Source of the DNA: an uncultured Candidatus Poseidoniales archaeon
Lineage (GTDB): Archaea; Thermoplasmatota; Poseidoniia; Poseidoniales; Thalassarchaeaceae
Direction: 5' to 3'
Length of the DNA stretch: 29,742 nt
Assembly (NCBI GenBank): GCA_964645485.1
Contig: CAZXZO010000009.1
Span: 29,612-59,353 of the forward strand
Under the pieces are notes generated by a model. The model was given only the letters and a program-made list of their open reading frames with translations, was not told the DNA's origin and did no database searches. Shown one piece after another: positions 14,382 to 29,586 of this stretch. A program made the position numbers and the translations under genes. How positions within the stretch are numbered: position 1 is the first letter of the stretch; each line of letters starts with the position of its first letter.

Positions 14382-15212
14382 ATGCGTGTGGCAGTGACGG
14401 GAGCGGCCGGATTAATCGGCGGAGTGGTATTTGACAGACTAGTTGGGGAAGGCCACGACGTCATTGGGATAGACCGCCCACATAGTGATTGGATGGACGC
14501 AGGTAGGAATACCGATGATGCAAGCGCTCCAAGTCGCGTAACTCATCACTTTGATTTAGCAGAAGCAACTGATTCAGAATGGCAGATGATGCTTGCAGAT
14601 TGCGAAGTAGCAGTCCATTTAGCGGCAGATGCAAATCCTTCCAACAGCGATGAGAGTATGTTGAGAAACAACATCTTGGTGACGACTAATTTCATGCGCA
14701 ATGCCAAGGAATCTGGTGTGCGCAGAGTGGTGTTATCTTCATCAGGCCTTACTCAAGTGGGTCTTGAGGCTGAACTTTTGCTGGGGGGCTCTCTTGAAGG
14801 GCAACTTATCGGGGTAAAGCACAGGACTTCTACCACTAGCACCTATGGTGAGACAAAGGTATTCGTCGAACGACTCGGCCAGTATTACTCCAGCGGGCTT
14901 GGGATGGAATGCATAGTCGTAAGAATTGGTACGGTAATTCCGTCTGAGTCTGAGCATTGGGAAAGAGGCGGCAGGCTACAAGCAACCGCGTTTTTACAAG
15001 CAGATGTTGCTAACTTCTTTAGCGCCGCGGTAGAAGCAGATTTCTCGTCGTGGGATTCACAATCTTGTGAAGGCCACCCTAACATTCCTGGCTATCTTTT
15101 GACTGCGGCTCAATCCGATTCGCCTGCTCGATTTGTTGACCTAGAACCTGGAATTTCGGCGCTTGGTTGGAGTCCAATAGAATGGCCAAGTGGGCCGGAG
15201 CACCTTCAATGA
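14382..15212 (+). CDS. NAD-dependent epimerase/dehydratase (extended SDR; uronate-dehydrogenase-like)
   Basis: VAVTGAAGLIG Rossmann motif, HLAA, VVLSSS, catalytic YGETK (YxxxK) and RIG. Confidence 0.85.
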   Translation: MRVAVTGAAGLIGGVVFDRLVGEGHDVIGIDRPHSDWMDAGRNTDDASAPSRVTHHFDLAEATDSEWQMMLADCEVAVHLAADANPSNSDESMLRNNILVTTNFMRNAKESGVRRVVLSSSGLTQVGLEAELLLGGSLEGQLIGVKHRTSTTSTYGETKVFVERLGQYYSSGLGMECIVVRIGTVIPSESEHWERGGRLQATAFLQADVANFFSAAVEADFSSWDSQSCEGHPNIPGYLLTAAQSDSPARFVDLEPGISALGWSPIEWPSGPEHLQ

Positions 15213-15236: not shown

Positions 15237-17348
15237 ATGAAAGGCCCATTGACACTTGGAATTGATGTTGGAACTAGTGCTACAAAAGTGCTACTGCTAG
15301 ACAATTCAAGGGAATGGGAAATGGCTTCATGGCCTACTTCTGAGGGCCTGTGGGAGAATCTTCTGAATTGGCTTGATGAGCGTGGGGAATCCGTAGTCAG
15401 AGTCGGTATCACAGGGCATGGTCCATCTGCAATTGTAATCCGAAATGGAGAAGCCGTTGGTTCCAAAATTTCCTGGTTTGATGATTTTGTAGAGGGATGT
15501 GAACGTGAGGTCGATAATGACCACATTTTGACAGGAAATAGAGCATGGGTTCCATCTCGTTTAGCCCAGTGGGAAAAACAGAACGGACCGCTAAGTGATG
15601 GTGTTCCTGTGCAACTCAAAGACCTGCTCAACTGGCAATTAACCGGGGTGGTTGGCCGTGATACTCGCTCGATGCGTGGGTATTCTGGAGAGGGGAATTT
15701 CTTCCTTCCCAATGAGATAATCGGACTTGTCAACAAGGCTGGCTCAAAGATTTCTGGAATCTGTGTTGGTGCTGAGGTGATTTGTGGATGTGATGATTTG
15801 ACTGCTGGCGTAATCGGTTTGAAATCCAAGCCGGGAGATTTGTTTAATCTCGCAAATACCAGTGAACATATTGGCTTAGTAGGCGGTCAGCCGATGGAAG
15901 GATTCAGTTGGTTGCCCGAAGTGGGTAAATTGCCAGCACTTTGCTATTTGTCAACATCAACCGGTGGAAGCACACTGGCAAAAAAATTCAATGTTCAACC
16001 GAGTGCAGAAGCGGTAAAAAGGTTCATTTCCCAATTGGAAAATGAAAAAACCCAAGGAAATGACCAATTAAATCAGGATTCCAAAGACGACTCAAACCTT
16101 GGCCCGGGTTGGGCGGCGATTAAGGAACTGAATCAGCCTATAGATGAGGTTCGAAATATGTTCCCTAACCATGAGATGTTGATTGGTGGCGGCTTGGCAT
16201 TAATCCCTCAAGTCGTTGAATCAAGGAAGGCAACACTTCGTGCAGGACAAGAGGTCAGTGTTTTGGGTGTGGCTAAACTAGCCCAACCTCCTTTGGCGGT
16301 AATTTTTGGTGCAGGTAAAGTAGGCCGAGGTTTTCTCGGTCAACTACTGCTAAGAGCAGGTTGGCGAATTCACTTTGTTGACTCTAATTTAGAGTTGGTA
16401 AAGGCACTTGAGGAGGGCACTTACACAATCAGCAATTTAGCCACTGGCGAAGTTGAGGTGATTTCAGATTATACAGTTTCAACCGATGAGTGGCGGCTGG
16501 AAGAGGCTTCTCTAATTCTTACATCATTAGGTGCTAATGGGTTAGCAAATTGGGCCCAATCAGTATCGGATTTAGATAAAGATATTGACATTATTTTGGC
16601 AGAAAACCATCCCGCTCCGGCTAAACTTGTGAGAGAACACATCAGTAGTTCAAGAGTTGGGGTTGCTCAAGCACAGGTACTGCGTTCTTGTATTGAACCA
16701 ACAGAAGAACAGATTGCGAGTCATGGGCCTCTAACAGTACAAGTCCAAGATCATTGGACATTACCACTGGATGCGGATGCACTTATTCATCCTGAATTAG
16801 TCTCAAGTGTTGGGGGATTTGAAGCAAAACCTAACTTTTCAGTAGAATTAACAAGAAAATTGTATACCTATAATGCGATAAATGCAGCAGTGTGTTATCT
16901 AGGGGCACAGAGAGGATATGTTTGGCTGAGCGATGCCGCAAATGATTCTGAAATTTCTGAGATAGCAAATCAAGTTGGGGTGGAGGCGTCAGCCGCACTA
17001 ATTGGGGAGTTTGGCTTTGATGAGGGTGAACAGCGTGATTGGTCAAGTCGTGCTTTAGCAAAATATCAGGATGTCACCATTCGTGACCCGATTGAGAGAA
17101 ATGCTCGTGACCCGATTCGAAAATTGGGTTTGCATGACCGAATCTTGGGACCTATCCATTTGTGTATCAAACATGGTTTGCCTCATGATGCCTTAATTCA
17201 GACAATGGAGAGTGCTCTTTCATACAGAGAACCAAGCGATTCTGCTGCGATGCAATTGGTGAAGTATGTCGAAGATTTTGGTGCTTGGGGTGCGCTCCAA
17301 ACCATCGCTTCTGGAGTCGATGAATCTCTTGCCAATTACATTGGTTAG
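15237..17348 (+). CDS. Fusion of an FGGY-family carbohydrate kinase (N, ~345 aa) and a mannitol-1-phosphate 5-dehydrogenase (MtlD)-like domain (C, ~350 aa)
   Basis: Kinase: LGIDVGTSATK, GITGHG, KDLLNWQLTG, ICGCDDLTAG, IGGGLA and EVSVLG. Dehydrogenase: IFGAGKVGRGFLGQLL, AEN, RKLYTYNA...YLG and RDPIRKLG.HDRI.GP. One uninterrupted frame with SD GGTGA. Confidence 0.85.
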   Translation: MKGPLTLGIDVGTSATKVLLLDNSREWEMASWPTSEGLWENLLNWLDERGESVVRVGITGHGPSAIVIRNGEAVGSKISWFDDFVEGCEREVDNDHILTGNRAWVPSRLAQWEKQNGPLSDGVPVQLKDLLNWQLTGVVGRDTRSMRGYSGEGNFFLPNEIIGLVNKAGSKISGICVGAEVICGCDDLTAGVIGLKSKPGDLFNLANTSEHIGLVGGQPMEGFSWLPEVGKLPALCYLSTSTGGSTLAKKFNVQPSAEAVKRFISQLENEKTQGNDQLNQDSKDDSNLGPGWAAIKELNQPIDEVRNMFPNHEMLIGGGLALIPQVVESRKATLRAGQEVSVLGVAKLAQPPLAVIFGAGKVGRGFLGQLLLRAGWRIHFVDSNLELVKALEEGTYTISNLATGEVEVISDYTVSTDEWRLEEASLILTSLGANGLANWAQSVSDLDKDIDIILAENHPAPAKLVREHISSSRVGVAQAQVLRSCIEPTEEQIASHGPLTVQVQDHWTLPLDADALIHPELVSSVGGFEAKPNFSVELTRKLYTYNAINAAVCYLGAQRGYVWLSDAANDSEISEIANQVGVEASAALIGEFGFDEGEQRDWSSRALAKYQDVTIRDPIERNARDPIRKLGLHDRILGPIHLCIKHGLPHDALIQTMESALSYREPSDSAAMQLVKYVEDFGAWGALQTIASGVDESLANYIG

Positions 17349-17404: not shown

Positions 17405-20400
17405 ATGGCGAGGAAGAGACGGGTGAAGAAAAACGGGCCGGCCGGCCCTCAAAGTGGACCACCATCAGGCCCACCAAGTGGCCCACCATCCGGCCCTCCA
17501 TCTAGTGGTCCACCCGGCTCTGCAAGAAAGGGTCCGCCATCATCTTCTCGAGGCCCCCCGGGCTCGTCGCCTAGGCCTCCAGGGTCTGGCTCAAGTGGTC
17601 CTCCAAGTTCGATGCCACCAATGAGTGGTGGGCCACCTTCAATGCCTCCTCCTGGCCCACCTGCAAGCACAGTTCCAATTGAGCCTGAGGATGAAGAATT
17701 CAATTCCGAAGAAGAAAGTGATGAGGATTCAACTCAGCATGCAGAAGAATCCGAAGCATCCGATGAATCAGCAGATGAGGAAGAAATTGATTCAGATGAT
17801 GAGGAAAGTGACGCCGAAAGTGCAGAATCTATTGAAATGGATGATGCATTAGCAATGGTGAGTTCAACACCCTCACCTGAATCATCTCCAATGCCACCAA
17901 TGGGGCCACCTAGTGGGCCTCCTTCTGGGCCGCCATCAGGACCTCCAGCCGGGCCACCCTCGGGACCGCCTTCCGGACCACCAAGTGATCCACCCGCAGG
18001 CCCAAGCGGCCCTCCTCAAGCAGTTGACATGGCCGCTGCATTCGGGGCAATCGGTATGACTCCGCTTGGTGCAGATGGAGACTCAGCAGCCGAGGATTCT
18101 GATGATGAATCAGAGGCAGAGGCAGAAGCAGAGGCAGAGGCAGAAGCAGAGGCCGCACCGGAAGTAGAAGCGGACGTAGAAGCAGAATCACAAGATGAAC
18201 CTGAGGCGATAGAAGCGGATTTAGCCGGCCCAACAATTGAGCATATTCAAGCGGACCCACGCGACGAAATCGAGGTTGAAGTAGTAGAAATTGGCGAATT
18301 ATCACCTCTGCGAAAACCACTACGAAACCCCGAGCCACCCGCCCCTGAGCCAGACCTTGGGACCCCTGTATTGGAGGCGGCAAGCGACATGGGAGAATCA
18401 AAGTTAGTTGGTCACATCGTACCCCACACACATTGGGACCGAGCCTGGTATTTACCTTTCCAGCAGTTCCGCTACAAACTAGTTGAGATGGTCGATGACC
18501 TGCTTGATTTAATGGAAACAAATCCAGAATCTTTCCCCACTTTTGAGTTAGATGGCCAAACCGTCGTCATTGAGGATTACTTGGAAGTTCGCCCAGAAAA
18601 TCGTGAAAGATTGATTTCACTGGTGGAATCGGGCCGACTCTCAATCGGCCCTTGGTATGTACTTCCTGATGAATACATAGTTGGTGGCGAGGCATTAGTT
18701 CGCAACTTGATAGCCGGGAAGCGTGTCGCATCCGCACATGGTGGATGCTCAACTGTCGGTTATGTTCCCGACCCATTTGGACACGTTGGACAATTGCCCG
18801 CAGTCCTGCAAGGATGCGGGCTTGACACTTTCATCTTCACCCGTGGAGCAGGTCCTTGGGTAGCAGAAGAGGCCAAGGGAATTTTCTATTGGCAAGCGGC
18901 TGATGGAGAAACCGAAGTGTTAGCAATCAAACAGGTTCCAGATTATCCTAATCTGATGGCTTGGGGATTTGAAGACCGGCCATTAGACAAGAAAAGTTCA
19001 CCAAATGTCAATGTTGATACTGCAATGGCGAAGATGGAAAGACTCCTTGAAATGCACAAGAAAACATACTTGTGGCGACCAACTGATTTGTTGTTTGGTC
19101 AAGGCAGTGACCACACTCTGCCACAAACAACTTTGCCGAAATTGATAACCGCAGCAAACGACCATTTCGGCAACAAAATCCAATTCAAACATTCATCATT
19201 CTCACAATTCACAAATGATTTGAAATCATGGATTGGGCGCAAGAAAATTTACCGTTATCAAGGTGAACTCCACGATGGTTGGGACCGCAATATTCTGTCG
19301 GGAGTATTCAGTGCGAGGCTATACTTGAAGCGTCTCAATGACCAAACTATGCGGGCTTTGACAGACCGTGTTGAACCACTCAGTGCCGCGGCACGTGCGT
19401 ATGGTGGAAGGGATAGACAGGCAAGGCTCAACTTGGCTTGGCGAGAGGTGTTACGGGCTCATCCTCACGATGATGTGTGTGGATGTTCTGTTGATTCAGT
19501 ACACGACGATAATGAGGTGTTTTTGAAACATGCACAACAAATTTCAATGATGCTAGTTGATGATGCTGCAGAAGATCTGAGAGGTGCCTTTAATCTGCAT
19601 CACGTTGACCGTGATGCGGTTCCAGTATTATTGCATAACCCGCTTCCAGTTGCTTGGTCTGGGACTCTGCCGATTGACATGGCATTGCCGGCTTATCGGT
19701 GCTATTTGGAGGCTGGAAAGACACTGAAAATTGAATTATCGAAGCCGGTTGATGGATGCATTTTGCAGACCATGGCTACTTTGTCTGAGCCGCAATTTGG
19801 ATTGCATGAACACCCTGACCGCACTATCAATGTTGAATTGCCAAGAGTTCAGGGTGCAGTCTTAGTTCACAATCTTCCACCGGGAATTCATGTGGCTCAT
19901 GTTTTGCCGGGTACGGGCAGTCAGAACTTGCCGGCAAAACCAGTCAAGACAGGCGGGCGCCAAGGGCGCACCGACTGGATGGAAAACGGCCTTGTCAGAG
20001 TGCAATTTGGTAGAGATGGCCGTTTTGATGTAATTGATGCCGCGACCAAGCGAACTTACACCGGCTTAGGCAGATTAGAAGATTCTGAAGATGCCGGAGA
20101 TTCATACGATTGGTCGGCCGGTGGGAAACCGGTAGAGGTTGGCACCGGCCGCGGCTCAAAAATGGAAAAGCGAGTGCTGCCAGTTGACCGAAGAATATAC
20201 GATATGGATGAAGCCGATAAACGAGCGACATCTGTTACATTAATGATGGAAAATGCGTGGCTCACTACAGTGTTGGTGCAATCGCATTGGTCACTTCCAT
20301 TAGCATTTGATAATGATACTCAAAAACGGACCACTGAAGAGGAGTGGGTGACGGTTGAACACTATGTGACATTGCGCTCGGGCTCGAAGGTTGTGGAGAT

Positions 20401-21226
20401 TGAAACGATGGTCAATAATACGTGTGAGGACCACAGGTTGAGGGTCTGTTTACCCACCGGTTTGAACCCCAAGAAGGTGTGGTGTGGAGGGGCGTTTGAC
20501 GTGCTCTCAAGAAATACTAGTTTGCCTCACGTGGAGGAGTGGGAACAACCAACGGTGCCAACTCAACATTTCAGTCAGTTTGTATCTATGCAAGACCGGC
20601 TTGGCGGCTTGGCAGTGATTGTGCCGGGCTCCAACGAATATGAGGTTGCCAAGACTGATGGTAAGGATGGACTGGATTTACGAATCACGATGCTGAGAGC
20701 GACTGGCTGGTTGAGTCGGGATGGATTTGCCAGCCGGCGAAATCGTGCTGGACCTTGTTATCCAGCTCCTGGCGCTCAGTGCCAAGGTCAATCATGGATG
20801 CGTTGGGGAATATTGCCTTACGAAGGTATGTGGGCACAAGCAGGTGTGCACGAATCGGCAGAGAAATTTGCCGCTAATGCGACTCTGTTGCCTGCACATG
20901 GGAAGCCGCAACTCAACGGCTTCTTTGATGACCCGTTGTCAAAAGGAATCCGAGGGCGCTCAGCCGCGCCGGTCAGATTTGTTGGGGATGGGCCGCGGCC
21001 GATTTTATCAGCATGTAAGCCGGCCGAGGATGGTGAGGGAACTGTAATCAGGATTCACAATCCAACAAAATACGAGTGGAACGGTAGAATCGAGACAGAT
21101 TTACCTTTGTTTGAATGTAACGAATGCGACATGATGGAAAATGCTGGCAAAGCGGTTGACATCAGTGACCAAGGATGGGAAGTCAGCATTGGGGCAAAGA
21201 AAATTGTAACTTTCCGCTTCAAGTAG
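17405..21226 (+). CDS. GH38 alpha-mannosidase (MngB/mannosylglycerate-hydrolase-like) with long Pro/Gly/Ser- and acid-rich N-terminal extension
   Basis: HTHWDRAWY (Zn ligands), LDGQ, IGPWYVLPDE, YVPDPFGH (nucleophile Asp), HPHDDVCGCS and LRATGWLSR. Residues 1-~328 are low complexity. No signal peptide. Confidence 0.92.
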   Translation: MARKRRVKKNGPAGPQSGPPSGPPSGPPSGPPSSGPPGSARKGPPSSSRGPPGSSPRPPGSGSSGPPSSMPPMSGGPPSMPPPGPPASTVPIEPEDEEFNSEEESDEDSTQHAEESEASDESADEEEIDSDDEESDAESAESIEMDDALAMVSSTPSPESSPMPPMGPPSGPPSGPPSGPPAGPPSGPPSGPPSDPPAGPSGPPQAVDMAAAFGAIGMTPLGADGDSAAEDSDDESEAEAEAEAEAEAEAAPEVEADVEAESQDEPEAIEADLAGPTIEHIQADPRDEIEVEVVEIGELSPLRKPLRNPEPPAPEPDLGTPVLEAASDMGESKLVGHIVPHTHWDRAWYLPFQQFRYKLVEMVDDLLDLMETNPESFPTFELDGQTVVIEDYLEVRPENRERLISLVESGRLSIGPWYVLPDEYIVGGEALVRNLIAGKRVASAHGGCSTVGYVPDPFGHVGQLPAVLQGCGLDTFIFTRGAGPWVAEEAKGIFYWQAADGETEVLAIKQVPDYPNLMAWGFEDRPLDKKSSPNVNVDTAMAKMERLLEMHKKTYLWRPTDLLFGQGSDHTLPQTTLPKLITAANDHFGNKIQFKHSSFSQFTNDLKSWIGRKKIYRYQGELHDGWDRNILSGVFSARLYLKRLNDQTMRALTDRVEPLSAAARAYGGRDRQARLNLAWREVLRAHPHDDVCGCSVDSVHDDNEVFLKHAQQISMMLVDDAAEDLRGAFNLHHVDRDAVPVLLHNPLPVAWSGTLPIDMALPAYRCYLEAGKTLKIELSKPVDGCILQTMATLSEPQFGLHEHPDRTINVELPRVQGAVLVHNLPPGIHVAHVLPGTGSQNLPAKPVKTGGRQGRTDWMENGLVRVQFGRDGRFDVIDAATKRTYTGLGRLEDSEDAGDSYDWSAGGKPVEVGTGRGSKMEKRVLPVDRRIYDMDEADKRATSVTLMMENAWLTTVLVQSHWSLPLAFDNDTQKRTTEEEWVTVEHYVTLRSGSKVVEIETMVNNTCEDHRLRVCLPTGLNPKKVWCGGAFDVLSRNTSLPHVEEWEQPTVPTQHFSQFVSMQDRLGGLAVIVPGSNEYEVAKTDGKDGLDLRITMLRATGWLSRDGFASRRNRAGPCYPAPGAQCQGQSWMRWGILPYEGMWAQAGVHESAEKFAANATLLPAHGKPQLNGFFDDPLSKGIRGRSAAPVRFVGDGPRPILSACKPAEDGEGTVIRIHNPTKYEWNGRIETDLPLFECNECDMMENAGKAVDISDQGWEVSIGAKKIVTFRFK
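17432..17669 (+). repeat. Coding low-complexity repeat, (GPPS)n block 1
   Basis: GPAGPQSGPPSGPPSGPPSGPPSSGPPG...; 12-bp units diverged at synonymous positions. Boundaries approximate. Confidence 0.8.
17890..18018 (+). repeat. Coding low-complexity repeat, (GPPS/GPPA)n block 2
   Basis: MPPMGPPSGPPSGPPSGPPAGPPSGPPSGPPSDPPAGPSGPPQ. Boundaries approximate. Confidence 0.8.
18113..18154 (+). repeat. Hexamer tandem repeat (GARGCA)x7 encoding (EA)7
   Basis: gaggca gaggca gaagca gaggca gaggca gaagca gaggcc, containing an 18-bp higher-order unit twice. Confidence 0.9.
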
Positions 21227-24327: not shown

Positions 24328-24388
24328 GGAGAAATAATCCTTGAACTATCCTCCGCCCCATTATACTATTTATTTTACATATAATCTT

Positions 24389-24411
24389 GCGAAAAGTGAA
24401 TGGTAGATGCC
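24389..24411 (+). repeat. 23-bp direct repeat, copy 2; overlaps the probable promoter of the DUF2817 gene
   Basis: Exact match to 21533-21555. Lies 20 nt upstream of GTG 24432. Confidence 0.95.
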
Positions 24412-24431
24412 GGCACTCGCAACAATTGGAA

Positions 24432-25547
24432 GTGGCTTCGGTGGTAGCGGATGATGTGTTATGGCGATATTTTTCTCCTGATTACGTAACTGCTCGTCAG
24501 CGTTTCCTTGACGCTGCTGAGAAGGCAGGAGCGAAAATCACATCCTTGCCGATTTCCGTACGCGGCCCTTCTGATGAAAACCTTACAATCGATATTGCCT
24601 ATATTGGTGGAGAGAAACCCTCACGAATGCTCATTCACACAAGTGGGGTGCATGGGGTTGAAGGATTTCCGGGGAGCGCAAATCAGGTTAGGATGTTAGA
24701 GCGTTTTTCAGCAGGAGAATTACAGATTCCTGATGATACAGGTTTGGTGGTAGCACATTCAATCAATCCTCATGGATTTGCTTGGCTAAGAAGAGTAAAC
24801 GAAAATAATGCTGATTTGAATCGAAATTTTCTACCACCAGGGGAGCCTTACGTGGGCGAGCCTGAAAGGTACCATGAATTGGATGGCTTCCTAAATCCAC
24901 GCTCTTACAAATCAACTTTTGACATGTTCACATTGAGGGCAGCATGGGTGATGCTAAAAATGGGATTCAATATTGCCAAGCAAACTATTGCTGAGGGTCA
25001 GTTCGAACGGCCAAAGTCGATGAATTATGGTGGCCACCAAATGTGTGAGGGGCCAAAACTTTGGTTAGAATATTTGTCAGGTGTGCTACCGAGTGTTAAG
25101 CGGGCAGTATGGCTTGATTTTCACACCGGATTGGGGCCATTTGGTGTTGATTCCTTACTTGTCTCAAATGAATTAGGTGAGGAGGCTTTCACGTCTCTCA
25201 CTGCACGTTATGGCTCAAGAATTCAACCATTAGACCCAGACGCTGGTGTTGCTTACCGTATACGCGGTGGAATGCTCGAAGGATTATCTGCACGATTTAC
25301 TGATATTGATTGGACATTGATTACCCAAGAGTTTGGAACTTACAAACCAGTCAAGGTGATCAAGACATTACGCGCTGAGAATAGAATGACTCAATGGTCG
25401 AATATAGGGAAGCGCGAAAAACTTCACTCGAAAGAGCGCCTAAGATTGGTGGAAATCTTCAGTCCTAATTCCGATAAATGGCGAGGAATGATAATGGATA
25501 GAGGCCAAGCGCTGATTGATGATGCTTTGGCTGATCTCAGCGATTGA
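24432..25547 (+). CDS. DUF2817 / M14-like zinc carboxypeptidase
   Basis: SGVHGVEG (HxxE), RRVNENNADLNRNF (R..N R) and DFHTGLG (third Zn ligand). Start uncertain (TTG 24387 or GTG 24432/24441/24456). Confidence 0.85.
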   Translation: MASVVADDVLWRYFSPDYVTARQRFLDAAEKAGAKITSLPISVRGPSDENLTIDIAYIGGEKPSRMLIHTSGVHGVEGFPGSANQVRMLERFSAGELQIPDDTGLVVAHSINPHGFAWLRRVNENNADLNRNFLPPGEPYVGEPERYHELDGFLNPRSYKSTFDMFTLRAAWVMLKMGFNIAKQTIAEGQFERPKSMNYGGHQMCEGPKLWLEYLSGVLPSVKRAVWLDFHTGLGPFGVDSLLVSNELGEEAFTSLTARYGSRIQPLDPDAGVAYRIRGGMLEGLSARFTDIDWTLITQEFGTYKPVKVIKTLRAENRMTQWSNIGKREKLHSKERLRLVEIFSPNSDKWRGMIMDRGQALIDDALADLSD

Positions 25548-28677: not shown

Positions 28678-29586
28678 ATGAGTCGTATCCGGGAGGGTAT
28701 GGCTCGCAAGGTAGTGGCTCGTGCTCCGGTGCGGATTGACTTCGCTGGCGGTTGGACTGATGTTTCTCCGTACACGCACGATGTAGGTGGCGAGGTTGTC
28801 AATCTAGCCATCAATAAATACGCTACTGCCACGCTAGAAGTTGACGATGAGGGGATACTCTCGGTCTCTTACACCTGTGAGGTTCCGGTGGGCTCGGGCT
28901 TGGGGACTACCGGTGCAATCAATGTGGCATTGATGGGTGCTATCAGCGCTATGGAAACTGATGATACCGGGCGTAAGGCATTAGCAGAACAGGCATTCCA
29001 ATTTGAGTCACTTTTAGGAAACAAAGGCGGACGTCAAGACCAGTGGGCAGCATCACATGGCGGCTGGAATCATCTGATGTTCATGCAGGATGATGTTGAG
29101 GAGATGCCGCTCGCTCCACTAGCATCAGCGACAAAATGGTTGCAGCGTCAGTTGATTGTTGTGAACTCAAATATTGCTCATGTTTCTGGCGATTTACACA
29201 AGAATATCTGGGGGAGATATGCGGATGGTGACGAGGAAGTTATAGAGGGTTTGATGGCGATTCGATTGGCGGCACGTGGCATGGCGAAGGGCATTCAGCA
29301 GGACAGGCGTGACGAGGTAATTCACGCACTTCACGAGGTGTGTCGAGGGGTTGACCTGCTTGATTTGGGGCTTCACGAACCGTTCCGTGGGGTGCTTGAC
29401 CCATTACTTGCTAGCAAGGATGTATTGGCTTGGAAGGCGGTTGGCGCCGGTGGCGGCGGATGTGCGATGCTGTTGTGCAATCTTGGTCGCAGAGAAGCGG
29501 TTGAAACTGCTTGTGAAGCGGCCGGATGGAGTCTTGTTGATTGGGCCGCAGATACCGAAGGCCTACAAATCACCGTTGAAGAATGA
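28678..29586 (+). CDS. GHMP-family sugar kinase (HddA / heptose-7-phosphate kinase / fucokinase-like)
   Basis: ARAPVRIDFAGGWTDV, VPVGSGLGTTGA, GGRQDQWAASHGG and KAVGAGGGGC. Alternative start ATG 28699. Confidence 0.88.
   Translation: MSRIREGMARKVVARAPVRIDFAGGWTDVSPYTHDVGGEVVNLAINKYATATLEVDDEGILSVSYTCEVPVGSGLGTTGAINVALMGAISAMETDDTGRKALAEQAFQFESLLGNKGGRQDQWAASHGGWNHLMFMQDDVEEMPLAPLASATKWLQRQLIVVNSNIAHVSGDLHKNIWGRYADGDEEVIEGLMAIRLAARGMAKGIQQDRRDEVIHALHEVCRGVDLLDLGLHEPFRGVLDPLLASKDVLAWKAVGAGGGGCAMLLCNLGRREAVETACEAAGWSLVDWAADTEGLQITVEE

Follow-up and report, generated by a model that had tools for sequence, protein, structure and literature searches.

Mannitol_dh-family enzymes and sugar kinases bring polyols into central metabolism in pairs such as DalD/DalK, or mannitol 2-dehydrogenase (M2DH) with fructokinase. 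Operons of the DalD/DalK type oxidise first and phosphorylate second, with a dehydrogenase that has no phosphate pocket. MtlD, a mannitol-1-phosphate dehydrogenase (M1PDH), is supplied by the mannitol phosphotransferase system (PTS). A fusion has also been described in Acinetobacter, where a HAD phosphatase joined to an M1PDH makes mannitol (PMC9168451; PDB 7OCN-7OCU), running from fructose-6-phosphate (F6P) through mannitol-1-phosphate (M1P) to the free polyol. Here we analyse a 29,742-nucleotide stretch of a contig from an uncultured Candidatus Poseidoniales archaeon (the window), in which one open reading frame (ORF) of 703 amino acids joins a reduced FGGY-family kinase to an M1PDH-like dehydrogenase. 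Our reading, to which we give about an even chance, is that the product is a bifunctional catabolic enzyme, an ATP-dependent kinase followed by an NAD dehydrogenase, with mannitol as its simplest substrate, working within a lineage-specific mannoside-utilisation cluster.

Marine Group II archaea (MGII) are among the most abundant heterotrophs of the surface ocean; they are uncultured, and their carbon sources are inferred from genes. The dehydrogenase gene is already a lineage-defining marker of 'mannitol metabolism' in MGII papers, which carry it under the KEGG orthology (KO) label 'mtlD' only (PMC6461757, PMC10480650), and in one such paper the co-distribution of 'mngB' with 'mtlD' is remarked upon. 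The searched passages of these papers make no mention of the kinase half, and since standard models miss the kinase, the MGII 'mtlD' readings take in the dehydrogenase half alone. The first-pass annotation of the window had allowed that the architecture might already be characterised. This is not so: we found no description of an FGGY-mannitol dehydrogenase fusion in the literature, only the KO-level 'mtlD' mentions. Nor did we find a gene assigned to a mannitol kinase activity, a term that surfaced in three fungal papers only. Both halves belong to known families; no characterised example of the fusion, the dehydrogenase subtype, the reduced kinase or the gene cluster came to light.

The fused kinase and dehydrogenase

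The frame and its domains and motifs, in window coordinates, are:

15237..17348 (+): fused FGGY kinase and MtlD-like dehydrogenase, 703 aa, a single ATG-to-stop ORF
15237..16286 (+): reduced FGGY-family kinase domain, residues 1-350 (AlphaFold2 [AF2], Foldseek, dN/dS)
15264..15287 (+): phosphate-1 motif D10-V-G-T-S-A-T-K17, with D10, G12 and K17 invariant (alignments)
15786..15797 (+): G184-C-D-D187, with the predicted catalytic-base Asp of FGGY kinases; G184 and D187 invariant (alignments)
16185..16193 (+): G317-G-G319, adenosine-binding glycine motif of ASKHA/FGGY domain II (alignments)
16287..17345 (+): M1PDH-type (long-chain polyol) dehydrogenase domain, residues 351-703 (Pfam PF01232 and PF08125, PDB matches, dN/dS)
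16308..16331 (+): Rossmann motif GAGKVGRG, residues 358-365 (sequence)
16680..16700 (+): LRSCIEP, residues 482-488, a subfamily signature in place of MtlD (D/N)SAVDRI (alignments)
16857..16883 (+): K541-LYTY-N546-AI-N549, the KxxxxNxxH catalytic motif with His replaced by Asn (alignments; motif from PMC9168451)
17085..17141 (+): D617xxxR621 and R624xxxR628-K629xxxxD634-R635, M1PDH phosphate-binding motifs, all invariant (PMC9168451, PMC6623548)

The first-pass annotation, made from the letters of the window, had read this stretch as a single 703-residue frame in which an FGGY kinase is joined to an MtlD-like dehydrogenase. The frame is present, and every motif it quoted can be located, in the N-terminal half (GIDVGTSATK at residues 8-17, GITGHG at 57-62, GCDD at 184-187, IGGG at 316-319 and EVSVLG at 339-344) and in the C-terminal half (FGAGKVGRGFLG at 357-368, AEN at 455-457, VLRSC at 481-485, RKLYTYN at 540-546 and RDPIRKLG at 624-631); Foldseek bears out the nature of the first half, Pfam that of the second, and conservation across protein clusters their union. 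The AF2 model of the full-length fusion (pLDDT 91.2, pTM 0.85) is compact: the kinase closes with a helix that stops at residue 349, the dehydrogenase opens with a strand at 353, and the two domains are thus predicted to abut without a linker.

The fusion is widely conserved. Over 100 clusters of proteins 659-807 aa long, drawn from numerous independent assemblies, have the kinase-dehydrogenase architecture, the named ones deriving from Thalassarchaeaceae and Thermoplasmatota metagenome-assembled genomes (MAGs). Across the Poseidoniales order the fusion gene is carried by 39 of 301 species-level genomes, belonging to 8 of 26 genera, within which it is nearly universal (10/10 genomes in genus g1, 16/17 in g10). 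Given this number of independent clusters and genomes, the fusion is neither a chance joining nor a frameshift artefact. Selection on both halves is purifying. Against two congeners, where the comparison is not saturated, the kinase half has a dN/dS of 0.13-0.17 and the dehydrogenase half one of 0.08-0.10, and constraint is relaxed solely in a residual loop at residues 255-300 (0.28-0.44); values from the more distant L016-L018, saturated or mis-framed, were disregarded. A complex prediction with the halves as separate chains scored 0.00 against a mark of 0.32, which weighs neither way, and the public sequencing runs listed as containing this stretch are DNA runs, with no RNA run among them.

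Standard models do not readily recognise the N-terminal half. Pfam FGGY_N matches it only at E 0.66 over 19 residues (6-24), below the gathering score, and the Pfam FGGY model finds no match anywhere in the 82%-complete host genome, the fusion kinase included. Longer orthologues do pass these models (the L011 kinase at 31.5 bits, cutoff 28.8; P0095-P0119 with PF00370 and in some cases PF02782 too), so homology to FGGY kinases is transitive, by way of these proteins; XylB is the nearest model for these orthologues. An AF2 model of the N-terminal half, built from 29 homologues (pLDDT 93.2, pTM 0.91), is predicted to adopt the two-domain ASKHA fold of FGGY type. Its top 50 Foldseek matches in the PDB are all FGGY kinases (E 2e-16 to 7e-13, TM by query 0.66-0.75), among them SePSK, LsrK, xylulokinase, glycerol kinase and gluconate kinase (3GBT).

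The half shares with XylB, Synechococcus SePSK (5HU2), LsrK and glycerol kinase the ASKHA/FGGY fold, the DxGT...K phosphate motif, the catalytic Asp and the GGG motif. By alignment, the catalytic and nucleotide motifs (DxGT/S..K, the G-x-x-D base, GGG) are kept, and D10, G12, K17, G57, G184, D187, G318 and G319 do not vary across more than 30 diverse sequences, archaeal and bacterial fusions alike, down to 32% identity. By position, D10, T13 and D187 would correspond to the residues replaced in the SePSK structures deposited in the PDB as D8A, T11A and D221A. Loss of the ATP site, which the first-pass annotation had named as a way in which its reading could fail, thus appears not to have occurred, at least as judged from invariant residues.

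Where it differs from these enzymes is in size. Canonical FGGY kinases have about 420-520 residues and a GER-P-type loop, whereas the reduced kinases have 304-350. Orthologues form a series from standalone enzymes of 463-522 aa, through long fusions of about 395-433 aa, to the 350 aa found here and a shortest form of 304 aa, a reduction of about 120-170 aa relative to the standalone orthologues that bears out the earlier estimate of a kinase some 150 aa short. An interdomain helix has been lost together with the domain-II counterpart, by alignment, of the canonical GER-P loop; this loop reads GxRGLxPDPxxxGGW in standalone and long forms, survives here as a remnant modelled with low confidence, and has gone from the 304-aa forms. 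The kinase clade is small and sharply bounded: an exhaustive profile search returned only 10 clusters at 50% identity below E 1e-30, with generic XylB-like kinases next after a gap, at about 1e-29. In the loci examined the reduced kinase never occurs without its dehydrogenase partner.

In the C-terminal half both Pfam models exceed their cutoffs (Mannitol_dh 28.4 bits against 27; Mannitol_dh_C 70.9 against 30.7), and the closest solved structures over residues 354-695 are MtlD 3H2Z (E 1e-30) and 5JNM (E 2e-23). Asp382, in the sequence HFVDSN, suggests NAD rather than NADP as cofactor. M1P dehydrogenases are told apart from free-mannitol dehydrogenases by the catalytic KxxxxNxxH motif, by DxxxR and by an Arg-rich RxxxRKxxxx(E/D)R that binds phosphate (PMC9168451, PMC6623548). 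With MtlD and other M1PDHs the domain shares the two-domain long-chain polyol dehydrogenase fold, the Rossmann GxGxxG, the Asn of AEN, the catalytic Lys and Asn, DxxxR and the Arg-rich phosphate pocket, and the residues concerned (K541, N546, E456-N457, D617, R621, R624, R628, K629, D634 and R635) are invariant across about 120 homologues, standalone forms and bacterial fusions.

It departs from MtlD in two motifs. The His position of KxxxxNxxH is N549 in every family member, and the VDRIV of MtlD is always LRSCIEP, which brings with it a new invariant Arg483. The first-pass annotation had noticed VLRSC in place of VDRIV and had cautioned that the substrate could differ, a caution that the family-wide motif upholds; of its catalytic residues, the Lys and Asn are indeed retained as K541 and N546, but the family-wide change of His to Asn escaped it. 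On account of these two replacements we regard the family as a distinct subfamily, and because its scores also fall far below the NCBIfam cutoffs we term it M1PDH-like rather than an MtlD orthologue. Neither is it an Acinetobacter-type enzyme by family model, the N-terminal domain being FGGY instead of a HAD phosphatase (bifunc_MtlD NF046057, 34.7 bits against a cutoff of 800). E487 aligns with an Asp that in M1PDH binds the terminal CH2OH (PMC9168451), so the hydroxymethyl end is probably retained in the substrate.

The motifs point to a dehydrogenase built for a phosphorylated substrate, and the kinase-first order would then be favoured; the kinase residues and the full phosphate-binding Arg motif likewise favour the PTS-independent sequence of phosphorylation and then oxidation put forward by the first-pass annotation. 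A kinase cannot run backwards as a phosphatase, and for this reason the direction of the fusion is expected to be catabolic. By analogy, the protein may be seen as the mirror image of the Acinetobacter fusion: in both, an M1PDH is fused to an enzyme handling the mannitol phosphate ester, and the Acinetobacter enzyme offers a precedent for directionality driven by fusion, but there the partner is a phosphatase and the pathway biosynthetic, whereas a kinase partner implies catabolism.

Gene neighbourhood and a proposed route

Two genes flank the fusion on the same strand:

14382..15212 (+): Azf/uronate-dehydrogenase-like short-chain dehydrogenase/reductase (SDR), 276 aa, YxxxK intact, ending 24 nt upstream of the fusion
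17405..21226 (+): GH38 alpha-mannosidase, 1273 aa, immediately downstream of the fusion

The SDR is present in exactly the 39 fusion genomes of the 301, in nearly all of them directly upstream of the fusion, and GH38 is present in all 39 and in one further genus (g11), which has a 46%-identical copy only. No polyol transporter is encoded in the archaeal SDR/kinase-dehydrogenase/GH38 cluster. With GH38 and the SDR co-inherited and no such transporter present, the input is probably mannoside-derived and not free algal mannitol, which had earlier been proposed as the source and which this context does not bear out. Two further observations concern GH38 itself. The g11 copy barely exceeds the Pfam thresholds, and its locus (L023, G231:C29:58000-77000) keeps H+-PPase, Abhydrolase_2, GH38 and GHMP kinase genes and is without the SDR, kinase-dehydrogenase and dehydratase. 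The N-terminal extension of GH38 (window 17405-18412, +) varies, and since frames with a conserved catalytic part range over about 960-1350 aa across genomes, it appears to be lineage-specific.

On this basis a route can be proposed. GH38 would release mannose upstream in the pathway, and the NAD-type SDR would turn the mannose into the substrate of the kinase, which is mannitol if the SDR is a reductase. The minimal FGGY domain would then phosphorylate a terminal hydroxyl of the acyclic sugar alcohol with ATP, and the attached M1PDH-type domain would use NAD+ to turn the resulting polyol phosphate into a ketose phosphate. In the simplest case D-mannitol becomes M1P and then F6P, independently of the PTS. 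In gene order, SDR, kinase and dehydrogenase would carry mannose to F6P in a redox-neutral manner, provided that the SDR reduces mannose. The identity of the substrate, the direction of the SDR and any channelling are points that we infer. If correct, the fusion would offer a way around the mannitol PTS at the cost of ATP, a candidate for the mannitol kinase and a minimal FGGY scaffold made by nature, and its obligate SDR and GH38 partners would point to the use of mannose-containing glycans or glycoproteins. A fuller version can be entertained as a tentative possibility, with a chance well short of even: that SDR, kinase and dehydrogenase together take mannose to F6P via mannitol with neither hexokinase nor isomerase, that the kinase is the first mannitol kinase to be defined by sequence and, at 304-350 aa, the smallest FGGY enzyme known to function, and that the 'mtlD' marker reports catabolism of mannosides or glycoproteins instead of mannitol as an osmolyte.

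Two further lines of evidence lend the mannitol route support. First, ROK, ADP-glucokinase, type I/II phosphomannose isomerase (PMI), Zwf, Gnd and any other Pfam-detectable FGGY kinase were not found in the 82%-complete host genome, and the lack of ROK, ADP-glucokinase and type I/II PMI is in keeping with a bypass of this kind. Second, aldose reduction followed by phosphorylation of the alditol by an FGGY kinase is a route cited for ribitol-5-phosphate, and human FGGY, the one FGGY enzyme assayed in that study, accepted alditols as substrates and left D-glucose and D-mannose unphosphorylated (PMC13576159).

Alternative substrates, directions and roles

Several observations weigh against mannitol. 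Human FGGY did not phosphorylate D-mannitol (PMC13576159). The NCBIfam MtlD equivalog cutoffs are not reached (best 138.2 bits against at least 356), and two substrate-contacting positions are unlike those of all characterised M1PDHs, so the substrate may be a polyol phosphate other than M1P. The nearest characterised relatives of the SDR are Azf, the archaeal NAD-dependent glucose-6-phosphate (G6P) dehydrogenase (66.6 bits; TM 0.81/0.85 between its Atlas structure and the Azf cluster), and uronate dehydrogenase (3RFT); these oxidise C1 of the sugar, and to judge from this kinship an aldonate route would fit better than a mannose reductase. A phosphoglucose isomerase (PGI)/PMI-type isomerase is present in the host genome, so a mannitol bypass is not obviously required. 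The bacterial fusions described below have no adjacent SDR. Finally, a module of DgoD-type dehydratase, 2-keto-3-deoxygluconate (KDG) kinase and 2-keto-3-deoxy-6-phosphogluconate (KDPG) aldolase is co-inherited with the fusion and often adjacent to it. In the host genome the module is a dgoK-A-D-order operon on another contig (C33:5333-8092, L009), encoding a PfkB protein like KDG/2-keto-3-deoxygalactonate (KDGal) kinases, a KDPG-type aldolase and the dehydratase. The dehydratase occurs in 35 of the 39 fusion genomes and in none of the 262 others, stands beside the SDR in several lineages, and passes the NCBIfam galactonate-dehydratase cutoff (321.8 bits against 311); a reading of this MR_MLE enzyme as a ManD-type mannonate dehydratase was considered and rejected, ManD scoring only 131 bits.

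In one rival reading the order of kinase and then dehydrogenase holds but the substrate is another one, either an aldonate (mannose oxidised to mannonate by the Azf-like SDR, phosphorylated to 6-phosphomannonate by the FGGY half in the manner of a gluconokinase, and oxidised at C2 by the dehydrogenase half) or a different alditol such as sorbitol, arabitol or ribitol, derived from another sugar. We think this unlikely, though it deserves to be taken seriously: besides the C1-dehydrogenase relatives of the SDR and the co-inherited aldonate dehydratase module, gluconokinase is itself a member of the FGGY family (3GBT), the dehydrogenase has exchanged His for Asn and gained the invariant Arg483 relative to M1PDH, and the bacterial fusions adjoin GH2/GH127 rather than GH38. 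For an aldonate, however, E487 would be badly placed, an acidic residue at the CH2OH-binding position being unfavourable beside a carboxylate, and the product, 2-keto-6-phosphogluconate, has no evident consumer, Gnd and Zwf not having been found. Moreover, in genomes such as this one, in which the DgoK-A-D-like module is unlinked, it is the kinase-dehydrogenase and not the dehydratase that the SDR accompanies, which favours, without proving, that the SDR works with the fusion. The SDR is nonetheless the weak point: as a C1 dehydrogenase, which by similarity it more resembles, it would feed an aldonate either to the dehydratase module or, a less plausible course, to the kinase-dehydrogenase as mannonate. 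We also considered whether the Azf-like SDR might oxidise G6P in an oxidative pentose-phosphate branch supplied by F6P, which is unlikely, neither Gnd nor Zwf having been found and the distribution of the SDR being lineage-specific.

The order of reactions might instead be reversed, a free polyol being oxidised to a ketose (mannitol to fructose) which FGGY then phosphorylates. Most characterised FGGY kinases use ketoses, XylB is the nearest kinase model, and gene pairs of a Mannitol_dh-family enzyme with an FGGY kinase, for instance D-arabinitol dehydrogenase with xylulokinase, provide a precedent. The fusion resembles DalD/DalK-type operons in pairing such a dehydrogenase with a sugar kinase, but it keeps the phosphate pocket that their dehydrogenases do not have: free-polyol M2DHs have neither the Arg-rich nor the DxxxR motif, both of which are invariant throughout this family, and the top dehydrogenase matches are all M1PDHs, with DalD appearing only at E 5e-4. 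On this evidence we judge a reversed order improbable.

Equally hard to sustain, and if anything more so, is a biosynthetic or osmolyte role, with fructose converted through F6P and M1P to mannitol. The MGII papers label the gene as mannitol synthesis or osmolyte-related, and M1PDH is reversible (PMC9168451). Yet F6P is a central metabolite for which a dedicated kinase would be needless, no phosphatase forms part of the fusion or is a conserved member of the cluster, glycoside hydrolases accompany the gene in archaea and bacteria alike, a catabolic context, and the known biosynthetic fusion has a HAD phosphatase and not a kinase. Recognition of the kinase would fix the direction as catabolic and so opposes this reading of the MGII gene. 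Last, that the shortened N-terminal domain has lost its catalysis and survives only in a structural or regulatory role for an ordinary M1P dehydrogenase is very improbable, for although some 120-170 aa have gone, the GER-P-aligned loop included, the domain is invisible to Pfam and the shortest forms have 304 aa, its catalytic and nucleotide-binding motifs are invariant in those same diverse sequences, its dN/dS is close to that of the dehydrogenase half with only the residual loop relaxed, and its predicted fold is confident and compact.

Split forms, bacterial fusions and other neighbours

Pairing of the kinase with the dehydrogenase recurs in two other guises, as adjacent genes and as an independent-looking bacterial fusion. 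In several archaeal lineages the two are separate neighbouring genes: 478 and 416 aa with a 4-bp overlap in L003, 522 and 377 aa in L004-L006, 467 and 399 aa in G200, and likewise in G015. The standalone dehydrogenases have diagnostic motifs identical to those of the fused ones. In a maximum-likelihood tree of the dehydrogenase domain the split L003 is the first branch among archaea, and split L004 and G015 fall, strongly supported, among fused ones, which means that the fused or split state has changed more than once. The first-pass annotation had reasoned that split orthologues would mark the fusion as a sequencing error; some lineages are indeed split, but these are natural adjacent genes and the fusion is no error. 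One apparent case was set aside: at L002:6001-7870, on a 663-kb polished long-read contig, kinase and dehydrogenase are called as overlapping separate genes, but the dehydrogenase hardly differs from its counterpart in the fused P0083 and GH38 is split there too, so that a long-read frameshift is the probable cause.

The best match outside the archaeal kinase clade, P0135 (896 aa), is likewise a fusion. It has the same domain order, and its dehydrogenase is of the same subtype (ILRSTIEPT, RKLFTYNCINA and the Arg-rich motif; LRSxIEP and TYNxxN in general terms) and 40% identical to that of the window. Its kinase, in contrast, is a full-length, canonical, xylulokinase-like FGGY enzyme (289 bits on TIGR01312) that keeps YLEGERSPIWD. 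Members of the P0135 family have 882-914 aa and form a separate clade in the dehydrogenase tree; their sole name is an automated JGI one, 'sugar kinase/mannitol-1-phosphate/altronate dehydrogenase', and the close standalone kinases that are named come from Acidobacteriota and Deinococcus MAGs. Like its archaeal counterpart, the bacterial fusion abuts glycoside-hydrolase genes, in three long contigs, although these are DUF5054, or GH2 followed by GH127, and not GH38; at L020:6856-13751 and L022:9001-16015 it is translationally coupled to glycoside-hydrolase-like genes. Genes for a TonB-dependent receptor, a cupin-type PGI and sugar-isomerase-like proteins lie in the surroundings, and neither a polyol transporter nor an adjacent SDR is found near the fusions in the three contigs. 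Some bacterial neighbours, DUF5054 among them, give faint matches to GH38_N, GH38_C and MGH1-like models (E 0.001-0.075), which are below threshold and were not used as evidence. This soil-bacterial counterpart suggests a wider, unrecognised module of polyol kinase and polyol-phosphate dehydrogenase.

Further genes recur around the archaeal cluster. The most complete arrangement is in G200, where nine co-directional genes encode a VTT membrane protein, dehydratase, SDR, FGGY kinase, dehydrogenase, a CD36-family protein, GH38, DUF2817 and a GHMP kinase. CD36 is generally held to be a eukaryotic scavenger-receptor family; proteins matching it, of 842-903 aa, lie between dehydrogenase and GH38 in G200 (L011:7314-10025, +) and G236 (L013:4460-6988, -), the Pfam match (about 72 bits, cutoff 26.5) falling in their N-terminal part. 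In the window a DUF2817 protein (24387-25547, +; 275 bits) is separated from GH38 by a membrane-regulator cassette, and DUF2817 recurs downstream of GH38 in L002 and G200. The GHMP kinase of the window (28678-29586, +; 302 aa) has its best matches, all far below threshold, to fucokinase, HddA and mevalonate kinase. It was considered as a dedicated mannose-1-kinase partner of GH38 and rejected, for although it directly follows GH38 in several relatives it is present in 196 of the 301 genomes and 21 of the 26 genera.

One protein grouping with the bacterial fusions in the tree, P0121 (787 aa), is a tandem duplicate of the LRSxIEP/TYNxxN dehydrogenase with two complete dehydrogenase domains, and its contig (JGI, 84 kb) also encodes an FGGY kinase, P0334.

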